In this document: one piece after another, positions 2,637 through 20,770 of the stretch
Numbering within the stretch: the stretch's first letter is position 1
Layout: each line of letters starts with the position of its first letter
Source: Candidatus Bathyarchaeia archaeon
Lineage (GTDB): Archaea; Thermoproteota; Bathyarchaeia; 40CM-2-53-6; RBG-13-38-9
Reading direction: 5' to 3'
Length of the DNA stretch: 24,329 nucleotides
Assembly (NCBI GenBank): GCA_038850385.1
Contig: JAWCLX010000001.1
Location: 31,670 to 55,998 of the forward strand
Notes under the pieces: generated by a model
The model's database searches: none
What the model saw: only the letters and a program-made list of their open reading frames with translations
Told to the model about the DNA's origin: nothing
Translations under genes and position numbers: made by a program

Positions 2637-2690
2637 CAGAGCCGCCGCTCCTGGACGAGTAAGGAAAGACTGAATAGGCATTCGCCGACA

Positions 2691-2702
2691 CAATCTTTAT
2701 TT
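2691..2702 (+). promoter_or_regulatory. TATA-like element for the tRNA-Tyr gene
   Basis: TTTATTT at 2696..2702. Typical archaeal spacing would put the transcription start near the G run at 2726-2728. Confidence 0.5.
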
Positions 2703-2738
2703 GGATTCCTCTTTGAGTCACCTCTGGGTCCCGCGGAA

Positions 2739-2954
2739 CCCGCGGTAAGGTGGAGGCGACCGCCCCGTAAGCTCAGCCTGGTAGAGCTTCCGATCACGCC
2801 AGTAACGTGAGGAGACGCTGTAGAGCTGCACCCAAGGTGCGGCCATCCAGCCTATCAGGCTAAAGACAGAGACCGGAGTGTCGCTGGAGAGCCTGAGAAG
2901 GCTCGGCGAATTCAAAATAGGCTTATGCCTATGAAACTCCGGCCCGCGGGACCA
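2739..2954 (+). tRNA. tRNA-Tyr(GUA) with five introns and genome-encoded CCA
   Basis: Exons 2739-2747, 2771-2792, 2817-2823, 2872-2887, 2911-2916 and 2938-2954 join to CCCGCGG UA GCUC AGCCUGGUA GAGC U UCCGG CU GUA GA CCGGA GUGUC GCUGG UUCAAAU CCGGC CCGCGGG A CCA. This is a complete 77-nt cloverleaf with the archaeal Tyr identity elements C1:G72 and A73. Anticodon at 2820-2822. Each intron ends in a 4-nt segment complementary to the upstream exon plus a 2-nt bulge. Confidence 0.93.
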
Positions 2955-3159: not shown

Positions 3160-3254
3160 TGGCGGGCCCGGTGGGATTCGAACCCACGATCTCCGGCTGC
3201 CCTCCCTCTATGGACCGAAGGCCAGCATCTTGATCCTGACTAGACTACGGGCCC
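3160..3254 (-). tRNA. tRNA-Arg(UCG) with one 16-nt canonical 37/38 intron
   Basis: Minus strand reads GGGCCCG UA GUCU AGUCAGGAUCA AGAU G CUGGC CU UCG G|UCCAUAGAGGGAGGGC|A GCCGG AGAUC GUGGG UUCGAAU CCCAC CGGGCCC G CCA. A20 and G73 fit Arg. Intron at 3199-3214, with GAGG pairing C32-C35. TTTAT on the minus strand near 3296-3300. Confidence 0.95.
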
Positions 3255-4758: not shown

Positions 4759-5805
4759 TTAAACCCCATGAATGAACTGCATAATACTCTCCTGATTTGG
4801 ATGATCTAAGACTCCCTTCTCAGAGACTATGGCGTCAACCAGATTGATAGGTGTAAAGTCAAAAGAAGGATTAAGAACCCCTACCTTCCTTGGAACGACA
4901 CGAACCCCAGATATGCATGTGACTTCACTGGGGCTCCTCTCCTCGATCCTAACCGCCTCACTAAGATTAGAGGAGTCGAAGGTCGATGTTGGTGCAGCTA
5001 CATAGAAGGGTATTCTGTGGTACCGCGCTGCGATCGCGATCGTGTAGGTCCCGATCTTGTTGAAGACGCCGTCCCTGACAATCCTGTCAGCGCCTACAAT
5101 TACCTTCTGGACGAGGCCTCGAGACATAACGTAACCCACCATCCCGTCAGTTATCACCTTCACCGGTATCCTGTCCCTTGAAAGCTCGAAGGCTGTCAAC
5201 TTGGCACCTTGAAGTCTGGGCCTGGTTTCAGTCGCGATCACCTTCACGCGTTTTCCTTTCTTCACAGAGGTCCTTACAGGCGCCAGAGCTGTCCCATAAC
5301 CTACGGTCGCTAACGCTCCTGCATTACAGTGGGTGAGGATAGTGTCCCCGTCAGCTATCAAGGGAGCTCCGTACTCACCTATCTTCAGATTCGCTTGGAA
5401 ATCATCTTCAGCCATCTTGATCGCTCTCTCTATAACCGCGATTCTCATAGCCTCAGGATCATCTGCCGACCGTCTCGCAGTCTCAAGGATCACTGAGAGG
5501 GCCCACGTCAGATTCACGGCCGTTGGTCTGGTTGATCCAAGCCTCTTCGAGGCTAACTCCATCTCCTTGAGGATCTTATCTTTGGTCTCTGCCCTGCTCC
5601 TGTAGGCAACCAACGCCAAGCCCATGGCCGCGGCGACCCCTATGGCGGGAGCCCCGCGAACAACCATCCTCCGGATTGCCTGAGCAACCTCGCCCACAGT
5701 CCTACACTTGACGTACCTCAGTCTCCCAGGAAGCAACGTTTGGTCTATCATCAAGACTGCCCCACTTCGCCACTTCACGGTTCTCAGGTTGAAGAAGTCC
5801 TCCAC
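4759..5805 (-). CDS. mtnA: S-methyl-5-thioribose-1-phosphate isomerase (eIF2B-alpha-like family)
   Basis: IDQTLLP, MVVRGAPAIGVAAA, TRPTAVNL, LTHCNAGALATVGYGTA, ETRPRLQGAKLT, GADRI, NKIGTY motifs. Confidence 0.9.
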   Translation of the reverse strand: MEDFFNLRTVKWRSGAVLMIDQTLLPGRLRYVKCRTVGEVAQAIRRMVVRGAPAIGVAAAMGLALVAYRSRAETKDKILKEMELASKRLGSTRPTAVNLTWALSVILETARRSADDPEAMRIAVIERAIKMAEDDFQANLKIGEYGAPLIADGDTILTHCNAGALATVGYGTALAPVRTSVKKGKRVKVIATETRPRLQGAKLTAFELSRDRIPVKVITDGMVGYVMSRGLVQKVIVGADRIVRDGVFNKIGTYTIAIAARYHRIPFYVAAPTSTFDSSNLSEAVRIEERSPSEVTCISGVRVVPRKVGVLNPSFDFTPINLVDAIVSEKGVLDHPNQESIMQFIHGV

Positions 5806-5920: not shown

Positions 5921-6262
5921 TTGATCGAATCATTTGAGGCTCAGTACAGACAGGAGACTTGGATAAGATACTTGGTCTACAGGGATCTCAGGGACAGGGG
6001 GTACATCGTCCGTGAATCCCGTAAGGTCGACTTTGAGATCTATGGGAAGGGGGCTGAGAGGCGGCTTGTCCATATAGTCTATGAGGGTGGAGAAGCCAGT
6101 CTTCGAGAGCTGACAACCCTCGTAAGATACGCGGCAAAGCAACATAAGGAGCTGATACTTGCGGTCATAGACAGGAGAACTGACCTCGTATACTACTCTG
6201 TAGGGGAGATGGACTTCCATAGAAGACCGGCTGGTTCAGGCTGGTTCAGTCAGGGTGTGTGA
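5921..6262 (+). CDS. tRNA splicing endonuclease (EndA) C-terminal-domain protein, probably a non-catalytic structural subunit
   Basis: YLVYRDLRDRGYIV, DFEIY and KELILAVID...DLVYY fit the EndA C-terminal fold. The KYG Tyr and the post-DFxVY His are not visible. An in-frame TAG at 5906 excludes an N-terminal domain. Confidence 0.8.
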   Translation: MIESFEAQYRQETWIRYLVYRDLRDRGYIVRESRKVDFEIYGKGAERRLVHIVYEGGEASLRELTTLVRYAAKQHKELILAVIDRRTDLVYYSVGEMDFHRRPAGSGWFSQGV

Positions 6263-7575
6263 AGCTGTTGGCTGAACCACAATCCTTCACAACCCCTAGA
6301 GGGATGAGGGATATCGATCAGGTCGAGATGGCTAATCGTTCTTGGATGTACCAGAAGATCAAGGGGACGATGAGGCTGTACGGCTTCCAGATGGTTGAAC
6401 CTACCGCCATGGAGAACCTGGCAACACTGGAGGCCAAGGCGGGACCTGACATCAGGAAGGAGATCTACTGGTTCGAGGACAAATCTGGAAGAAAACTCGG
6501 CCTGAGGTTCGACCTCACAGTTGGAATGACCAGGATGGTGTCGAACCGCCTCGAACTCCCAGAACCGATAAAGTTGTGCGCAATATCAGAGATGTGGAGG
6601 TATGATGAGCCGCAGTTCGGCCGGTACAGAAACTTCTCCCAGTGGGACGCAGAGATCTACGGGTCCGGAGGTCAGGAAGCCGACGCTGAGGTAATCTGTC
6701 TAGGGATGGACATCCTCGAGAGTCTGGGCCTCTCAGACTATGAAGTGCGGATCAGCAACCGCAAACTGACAGAGGGATTCCTCAAAGCAAGGGGCCTACG
6801 ATCCAAGGAGAAGATCGAGGCATCCATCAGGGTCATAGACAAGCTTGGAAAACTATCCAGTGAACAGGTGATGAGTGAACTCAGGGCTATAGGCCTCCAG
6901 GAAGATCTAGTCCAGCAGACAATGGAGTTCGCCAGTCTGAGAGGAAGACCGGACGAGGTCCTTTCAGAATCCCCCAGAATGCTTGAGGATGAGGGGAGGA
7001 AAGGTCTCGATGAGCTCAGAAAACTCGCTGATATTCTGGAGGCGTTCGACAAGATAGGTCGATGCGTCTATGACTATAGAATAGTCAGAGGAATAGGCTA
7101 CTATGACGGCATAGTCTTTGAGGCCTATGACAGGGTGGGTGAGGATATCGGCGCGATCTTTGCCGGAGGAAGATATGATGGGCTCTGCAGAGTATATGGG
7201 AAGAGGGATATGCCGGCTACAGGTGTTGCAGGGGGAGTTGAGAGGATAATGATCTCGATGGAGAGAGCTAACCTCCTCCCGAAGATCAGTCAGGCGCCCA
7301 CAGTCTTCGTCGTAGCAGTGAATGATGCTGTCAGAAGAGATTGCTGGAATATTACGCGACAGCTCAGGAGGATGGGTGTCCCCGCCGATTTCGACCTAAA
7401 GGGCCGCACATTCAACAAGCAGCTGGAATACGCGGATTCGATCGGTGTTCCATACACCATTATTATTGGCCGGAGAGAGCTTGAGAGAGGAGTTGTCAAG
7501 CTTAGGGATATGACTAAACGTATCGAGAAGGAGCTGACACTTCAAGAGGCTGTCAAGACCATCGGAAAGACCTGA
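6259..7575 (+). CDS. hisS: Histidine--tRNA ligase
   Basis: PRGMRD, LRFDLTV, WRYDEPQFGRYRNFSQ, RGIGYYDGIVFE, GGRYDGL, AGGVERI motifs and a C-terminal anticodon-binding domain; GTGA overlap with the upstream gene. Confidence 0.96.
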   Translation: MKLLAEPQSFTTPRGMRDIDQVEMANRSWMYQKIKGTMRLYGFQMVEPTAMENLATLEAKAGPDIRKEIYWFEDKSGRKLGLRFDLTVGMTRMVSNRLELPEPIKLCAISEMWRYDEPQFGRYRNFSQWDAEIYGSGGQEADAEVICLGMDILESLGLSDYEVRISNRKLTEGFLKARGLRSKEKIEASIRVIDKLGKLSSEQVMSELRAIGLQEDLVQQTMEFASLRGRPDEVLSESPRMLEDEGRKGLDELRKLADILEAFDKIGRCVYDYRIVRGIGYYDGIVFEAYDRVGEDIGAIFAGGRYDGLCRVYGKRDMPATGVAGGVERIMISMERANLLPKISQAPTVFVVAVNDAVRRDCWNITRQLRRMGVPADFDLKGRTFNKQLEYADSIGVPYTIIIGRRELERGVVKLRDMTKRIEKELTLQEAVKTIGKT

Positions 7576-20664: not shown

Positions 20665-20770
20665 TGGTGGACCGGGCGGGATTTGAACCCGCGACCTTCC
20701 GGTTTCTCGGCATAGCATGCGAACCGGACGTTCTTTGGCCGAGATGTATACCAAGCTGAACTACCGGCCC
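20665..20770 (-). tRNA. tRNA-Ala(CGC) with two 14-nt introns (21/22 and 37/38)
   Basis: Minus strand reads GGGCCGG UA GUUC AGCUUGGUAU|ACAUCUCGGCCAAA|GAAC G UCCGG UU CGC A|UGCUAUGCCGAGAA|A CCGGA AGGUC GCGGG UUCAAAU CCCGC CCGGUCC A CCA. G3:U70 is the Ala identity pair. Introns at 20734-20747 and 20704-20717. Confidence 0.94.

Follow-up and report, generated by a model that had tools for sequence, protein, structure and literature searches.

A Bathyarchaeia tRNA-Tyr(GUA) gene interrupted by five introns and preceded by a leader element complementary to its 3′ end

The stretch of Bathyarchaeia DNA analysed here, 24,329 nucleotides in length and referred to as the window, contains at positions 2739–2954 of its plus strand a tRNA-Tyr(GUA) gene broken into six exons. 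We conclude with high confidence that this gene is functional and probably the only one of its kind in the genome, that its five introns are spliced by proteins at 9/10, 30/31, 37/38, 53/54 and 59/60, and we propose that the module at 9/10 is aided by a leader. These positions follow standard numbering, the mature tRNA having one extra D-loop base, and the boundary of the first intron is ambiguous by one base (9/10 or 8/9).

Removal of the five segments in silico yields a 77-nt tRNA. The introns (23, 24, 48, 23 and 21 nt) occupy 139 of the 216 nt of the gene, and the exons measure 9, 22, 7, 16, 6 and 17 nt. Joined together, these form a standard cloverleaf with the anticodon GUA, a C1-G72 pair, A73 and an encoded CCA; C1-G72 and A73 are the identity elements of archaeal tRNA-Tyr. 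The spliced 77-mer is called tRNA-Tyr(gta) by ARAGORN, which makes no call on the raw gene, and a search of the window with Rfam RF00005 recovers both neighbouring tRNA genes, but not the tRNA-Tyr with its five introns. An earlier note, made from the letters alone, had given the coordinates of this gene with the lengths of its exons and introns, and had suggested that standard annotation could miss it; sequence reading and in-silico splicing reproduce every one of its boundaries, and ARAGORN and Rfam do both pass over the raw sequence. The features of the locus, in window coordinates, are listed below.

2688..2703, plus strand: BRE/TATA-like promoter, with a TTTATTT core at 2696-2702
2727..2736, plus strand: 5′ leader element GGTCCCGCGG, 10 nt, two bases before +1, complementary to the tRNA 3′ end
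2739..2747, plus strand: exon 1, tRNA positions 1-9, invariant in 13 distinct orthologues
2748..2770, plus strand: intron 1 (23 nt, 9/10), relaxed BHB with G4-G7:CCGU central helix and 5-bp hairpin
2771..2792, plus strand: exon 2, positions 10-30, a single match per genome in relatives
2793..2816, plus strand: intron 2 (24 nt, 30/31), C25-C28:GGAG central helix and 5-bp hairpin
2817..2823, plus strand: exon 3 (7 nt), positions 31-37, including the anticodon GUA
2824..2871, plus strand: intron 3 (48 nt, canonical 37/38), C32-U35:ACAG central helix and 8-bp hairpin, relaxed
2872..2887, plus strand: exon 4, positions 38-53
2888..2910, plus strand: intron 4 (23 nt, 53/54), C48-U51:GGCG central helix and 5-bp hairpin
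2911..2916, plus strand: exon 5 (6 nt, TTCAAA), T-loop positions 54-59, invariant
2917..2937, plus strand: intron 5 (21 nt, 59/60), U54-A57:UGAA central helix and 5-bp hairpin
2938..2954, plus strand: exon 6, positions 60-76, including the encoded CCA, a single match per genome in relatives

Every intron presents the same core splice motif, a 4-bp central helix in which an exon strand pairs with the 3′ portion of the intron and which has a 3-nt bulge on either side. The exon strand always comprises the four bases two positions upstream of the 5′ splice site, and a cut after the second bulge nucleotide gives the exact mature junction in all five cases, both by direct reading and by splicing in silico. 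The four short introns share one layout, with one bulge nucleotide, a 5-bp hairpin, a 4-nt central-helix strand and two bulge nucleotides, as the earlier note had described, and its five proposed central-helix pairings, that of the 37/38 intron included, are likewise borne out. An inner helix h′ is present throughout, formed by the 5-bp hairpin in introns 1, 2, 4 and 5 and by the 8-bp hairpin in intron 3, which begins directly after the 5′ bulge but is separated from the 3′ strand of the central helix. The outer helix h is absent for introns 1 and 4 and amounts to only 2 bp for intron 2. For intron 3 it is the anticodon stem, which is available only once intron 2 is removed, and for intron 5 it is the T-stem, available only once intron 4 is removed. 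A strict hBHBh′ motif, as judged by the outer helix, was found for none of the five tRNA-Tyr introns, and all five motifs belong to the relaxed HBh′ class. The precursor as a whole has a minimum free energy (MFE) of -112 kcal/mol, with a z-score of -6.25 against 200 shuffles (RNAfold), and the predicted fold has the central helix of intron 2 shifted by one base.

The same architecture recurs in related genomes. The neighbouring hisS gene (HisRS, 6259-7575) shares 69-73% identity with its counterparts in MAGs of uncultured Bathyarchaeia, and two of those hisS loci carry the same five-intron tRNA-Tyr in synteny. By pattern searches in 60 relatives, followed by spliced alignment, we found the same five intron positions in 13/13 recovered genomes of the window's family, its own included, representing 7 genera, and also in one genome of a sister family. 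An alignment of 13 distinct five-intron sequences (12 from the family and 1 from the sister family) gives a pairwise identity of 98.5% in exon columns and of 67.4% in intron columns. Standard pairs fill 96.5% of the cells of the BHB structure, against 34-43% when the partners are slid by 1-3 columns, and 20 helix pairs show double changes that preserve pairing; the observed values were reached by 0/500 column shuffles. Compensatory changes are seen at four of the five hairpin pairs in each of introns 1, 2 and 4, at three hairpin pairs in intron 5 and at five pairs in the 8-bp hairpin of intron 3. Across the 13 sequences the central helices are paired to 98% in intron 1, to 96% in intron 3, where one-sided changes keep pairing, and to 100% in introns 2, 4 and 5; they are nearly invariant, as would be expected of helices with one strand in an exon. 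Conserved exons together with covarying introns form, on the evidence of this alignment, the pattern that selection for splicing competence would predict. The identification as a tRNA-Tyr(GUA) with five introns, put forward in the earlier note, is thus supported by the BHB-type structures, by their conservation and covariation and by the ARAGORN call on the spliced sequence.

Intron 3 contains a further conserved segment, CTATCAGGCT (2852-2861), which is complementary to D-arm bases 14-22, AGCCTGGTAG (2775-2784). RNAalifold prefers the resulting 10-bp long-range helix, and two genomes carry a C-to-T change in the exon together with a G-to-A change in the intron, a combination that fits the long-range helix and breaks a local hairpin. 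The local hairpin itself (AGCCT/AGGCT) was considered as a candidate and rejected: it shows no covariation, and the D-arm pairing fits the two variant genomes better.

The genome encodes candidate proteins for splicing such motifs. Two genes have an EndA domain (PF01974). The product of one, encoded on contig C23 (minus strand) and 183 aa long, finds its best matches in the crenarchaeal catalytic subunits 2cv8, 3p1z_B and 2zyz_B (E ~1e-42), which are Sulfolobus, Aeropyrum and Pyrobaculum enzymes, and it has the Tyr/His/Lys motifs as well as a Lys-rich loop where crenarchaeal enzymes have their specific loop. The other, a 113-aa paralogue, is encoded in the window at 5921-6262 (+), 3 kb downstream of the tRNA-Tyr gene and adjoining hisS, and weakly matches the Pyrobaculum structural beta subunit 2zyz_A. 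A Tyr, a His and a Lys of this paralogue align with the catalytic-triad columns of the M. jannaschii enzyme, and it may not be a purely structural subunit. An RtcB ligase is also encoded (583 bits). Relaxed HBh′ motifs located away from the canonical position are known substrates of heteromeric (alpha-beta)2 endonucleases (PMC4090602, PMC5829648), and the host, judged from its gene content, appears to encode an endonuclease of a type that accepts relaxed motifs, either (alpha-beta)2 or epsilon2, together with RtcB.

Upstream of the gene, the sequence ACA(C/A)ATTTAT(T/C)T recurs at one and the same distance from +1 (-44 to -38) in the majority of 16 five-intron loci. From the usual archaeal spacing between TATA element and start, transcription is predicted to begin at about 2725-2727, approximately at the first base of the leader element. 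This element, GGTCCCGCGG, is exactly complementary to tRNA positions 66-75, which take in the 3′ acceptor strand together with A73 and C74-C75. Of 18 tRNA-Tyr genes with the 9/10 intron, 17 carry it and one (G005) has a degenerate version that still pairs through G.U; among genes lacking the intron it is found in 0/31, within-genus contrasts included. A similar association holds among the tRNA genes of the window's own genome: all four with an intron at 8/9 or 9/10 carry a leader matched to their own 3′ end, which covers the discriminator and CC in three of them, and leader complementarity is at most 5 nt in some 17 other tRNA genes. Besides Tyr, the genes concerned are Lys-CUU, Thr-CGU and one more (C46:14-134 (-), C3:17769-17875 (+), C5:9315-9488 (+)), with leaders of 6-11 nt. 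Among tRNA-Lys(CUU) genes, leader complementarity extends over 6-11 bp in 18/18 with the 8/9-9/10 intron; where that intron is lacking the median is 4 bp, and 2/17 reach 6 bp or more. Since the Lys genes bear this intron in other families than the Tyr genes do, presence of the leader goes with the intron rather than with the lineage.

Folding predictions suggest what the leader might do. In RNAfold, the intron-1 central helix has a probability of ~0.8 when the leader is included; the value falls to 0.016 if the leader is reversed and to 0.00 if it is left out. The MFE structure with the leader has it paired to the tRNA-Tyr 3′ end, and without the leader the acceptor stem wins. From this model and from the distribution of the leader we infer that the tRNA-Tyr leader assists the folding of the 9/10 intron; the same RNAfold calculation for the Lys, Thr and C5 loci did not reproduce the clear Tyr result. 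We also considered, and rejected, a structure in which the leader copy itself forms a BHB cut at -1/+1, as its inner helix does not pair. A wider proposal is that 8/9-9/10 introns in Bathyarchaeia depend on a folding switch in cis, in which a leader complementary to the 3′ acceptor strand, discriminator and CC would form a pseudo-acceptor helix and so free the 5′ acceptor strand for the splice motif. We advance it tentatively, as a possibility that we would not yet call probable.

Taken as a whole, the locus most probably works as follows. Transcription directed by the TATA promoter would begin ~13 nt upstream of +1 and produce a precursor of ~230 nt, in which each intron and the six nucleotides at the end of the exon before it would fold into a relaxed bulge-helix-bulge (HBh′) module. 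A heteromeric endonuclease of the crenarchaeal type would cut at the bulge sites, giving the exact mature junctions, and RtcB would join the six exons. The 37/38 and 59/60 modules would lack a full outer helix until the 30/31 and 53/54 introns have been excised, so that a preferred order of splicing is likely, though not obligatory. The 9/10 module would need G4-G7, which otherwise belong to the acceptor stem; by pairing with positions 66-75, the 10-nt leader would sequester the 3′ acceptor strand and allow this module to fold.

For the 9/10 segment there is an alternative. The gene might be functional without all of its segments being EndA introns, the 9/10 segment being removed by another route or only with the leader. 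Such a reading would accommodate the competition of the 9/10 module with the acceptor stem and its zero central-helix probability when the leader is left out, the lack of outer helices in introns 1 and 4, and also the fact that leader and 9/10 intron are strictly coupled, which suggests unusual processing. We nonetheless consider it improbable, since the 9/10 segment is the same module as the other short introns, down to the 4-bp helix, the 3-nt bulges and the 5-bp hairpin with its compensatory changes, and relaxed HBh′ motifs are cut by (alpha-beta)2 endonucleases (PMC4090602, PMC5829648). We therefore retain the reading of five introns spliced by endonuclease and ligase.

The earlier note had proposed a search of the genome for another tRNA-Tyr(GUA), arguing that this gene must be functional if there is none. 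Across the entire 1.13-Mb assembly (69% complete), a spliced search returned no second tRNA-Tyr locus: the gene scores 118, the next score is 90, and the background lies near 80-88. At this completeness such an absence counts for little by itself. In nearly all relatives the exon 2 and exon 6 patterns each match once per genome, and BLAST with a one-intron tRNA-Tyr of another family as query detected no compact tRNA-Tyr paralogue in five genomes of the family with a completeness of 93-98%. On these searches, the five-intron gene is apparently the only tRNA-Tyr gene of the genome. Were it instead a decaying pseudogene with accumulated insertions, the cell using another tRNA-Tyr, the silence of generic finders at the locus would be expected, and in a genome that is 69% complete the second gene could be unassembled. 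Against this, the exons are 98.5% identical over seven genera while the introns, at 67%, vary with compensatory changes; the promoter is conserved; and relatives have one locus per genome, with no compact paralogue in the five at 93-98% completeness. A pseudogene is thus very unlikely, and the gene is best regarded as functional.

To gauge chance, we used an intron finder that looks for a 4-nt exon strand, two exon bulge nucleotides, one intron bulge nucleotide, a hairpin, a 4-nt complementary strand and two bulge nucleotides, splices out the candidates in every combination and submits the resulting sequences to ARAGORN; the control was the genome reversed but not complemented. Single BHB candidates numbered 6199 in the real genome and 6242 in the reversed one. 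After splicing, the real genome gave nine tRNA loci, of which one, the tRNA-Tyr, has five introns, one has four and two have three, and the reversed genome, put through the same BHB and ARAGORN pipeline, gave 0. The tRNA-Tyr structure is not due to chance, since a similar number of BHB candidates produced no tRNA call in the reversed genome. Common as BHB-like candidates are (~6200 in real and reversed genome alike), a chance assembly of unrelated fragments, or a metagenomic misassembly, is effectively refuted by the lack of tRNA calls in the reversed genome and by orthologues of the same architecture in 13 independently assembled genomes.

We surveyed the distribution of tRNA-Tyr introns in ~50 genes from the window's order and in ~40 that belong to other Bathyarchaeia families. 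The number of introns per gene ranges from one to five, and none of these ~90 genes has more than five. Introns at 30/31 and 37/38 are nearly universal in the tRNA-Tyr genes sampled, those at 53/54 and 59/60 occur in several families, and the 9/10 intron occurs in four; some families have introns at 45/46, at a D-loop position, at 56/57 or at ~60/61. One sister-family genome has a different set of five (30/31, 37/38, 45/46, 53/54, 59/60). Apparent introns at 3/4 and 70/71 in other orders proved false, the spliced alignment having forced the query's own acceptor sequence onto them. A search for intron transposition, in which the five introns were compared with the genome by blastn-short, returned only the introns themselves and chance matches of 11-16 nt.

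Interruption in this genome extends to other tRNA genes. All 13 Rfam tRNA matches above the family cut-off span ~60-130 nt, compared with ~75 for an intact gene; they are either interrupted or matched in part only. An incomplete enumeration by BHB search and ARAGORN assigns five introns to Tyr, four to tRNA-Met and two or three to several other genes, and several of the enumerated loci have 'mature' lengths of 88-100 nt or ambiguous anticodons. The tRNA-Met(CAU) gene, at C1:10938-11136 (-), is ~200 nt long and gives a 77-nt tRNA after removal of four segments (24, 21, 59 and 18 nt). Two more interrupted genes lie in the window: tRNA-Arg(UCG) at 3160-3254 (-), with a 16-nt intron and an Rfam score of 53.8 bits, and tRNA-Ser(GCU) at 20668-20770 (-), with a 19-nt intron and 50.1 bits. 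Both are named by ARAGORN in intron mode only. In tRNA-Thr(CGU), at C3:17769-17875 (+), the 8-nt first exon is tandemly duplicated (GCCCCGGT, GCTC, GCCCCGGT), and either choice of 5′ exon leads to the same mature tRNA with the same ARAGORN score. Further tRNA-like 3′ ends, with a T-loop intron at 59/60 followed by an acceptor strand and CCA, lie on C11 (-), C30 (+) near 4880 and C79 (+) near 5378. These three were missed by Rfam, ARAGORN and the strict BHB pipeline and are visible only through the T-loop intron; they probably carry several introns.

Multi-intron tRNA genes are a known archaeal class. The tRNAscan-SE 2.0 paper puts the maximum at three introns per archaeal tRNA gene (PMC8450103), the figure also given in the earlier note. 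The note's further inference, that five would exceed what is known, is correct with respect to this peer-reviewed figure, but not with respect to an October 2026 preprint that reports up to five intervening sequences per tRNA gene in three Asgard families. With five introns, the present tRNA-Tyr apparently equals the largest number so far published for a tRNA gene. Full-text literature searches turned up no publication on introns of Bathyarchaeia tRNAs, nor any that describes a comparable leader element; in the literature found, the multi-intron class is undescribed for Bathyarchaeia, and the leader-assisted splicing feature is possibly new.

Among the closest parallels are the multi-intron tRNAs of the Thermoproteales (Pyrobaculum, Thermofilum and Caldivirga; Sugahara 2007, 2008, summarised in PMC8450103 and PMC4090602). 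These have short introns of ~20 nt, located at non-canonical positions as well as at 37/38, with relaxed BHB (HBh′) motifs, some of which reach their full form only on loss of an adjacent intron, and their endonuclease is of the (alpha-beta)2 type. They differ in their published maximum of three introns per gene (PMC8450103), against five in the Bathyarchaeia tRNA-Tyr, and in their hyperthermophilic hosts, the Bathyarchaeia host lineage coming from soils and sediments; intron transposition has been described in the Thermoproteales, whereas related intron copies were not found in this genome. Most tRNA genes of Asgard genomes have been reported as interrupted (PMC11291895). The October 2026 preprint describes nearly all tRNA genes as interrupted there, with a median intron length of ~22-23 nt and up to five introns per gene, many of the genes being missed by standard annotation; the present genome appears to share all of these features. 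However, the Asgard archaea belong to another phylum, and the preprint includes neither Bathyarchaeia nor a leader element coupled to intron position. The multi-intron nuclear tRNAs of the red alga Cyanidioschyzon merolae (PMC3728597, PMC9602550) can also be compared; they are eukaryotic, have at most three introns per gene, and some of the genes are permuted. In the split and permuted tRNAs of Nanoarchaeum equitans and C. merolae (PMC4090602), as in the Bathyarchaeia gene, sequence flanking the mature tRNA pairs to build the structure for the endonuclease. There, however, the leader-trailer duplex itself forms the BHB, whereas the Bathyarchaeia leader pairs with the mature 3′ end and would thereby free the 5′ acceptor strand for an internal BHB.

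An essential RNA of 77 nt can thus be encoded in six pieces, down to 6 and 7 nt in length, and kept in this state throughout a family, which pushes the known tolerance of archaeal splicing. Extreme interruption of tRNA genes extends from the hyperthermophilic Thermoproteales and a few Asgard families to the Bathyarchaeia, which are among the most abundant archaeal groups of soils and sediments. Tools of the ARAGORN and Rfam type would undercount tRNAs in such genomes, with a bearing on estimates of completeness and on inferences about decoding. The range of one to five tRNA-Tyr introns in close relatives offers a natural series in which to study intron gain and loss. The coupling between leader and intron provides a concrete and testable hypothesis for how a splice motif forms inside the acceptor stem; if true, the leader switch would represent a previously undescribed class of pre-tRNA maturation element, one that ties 5′-end processing to splicing.
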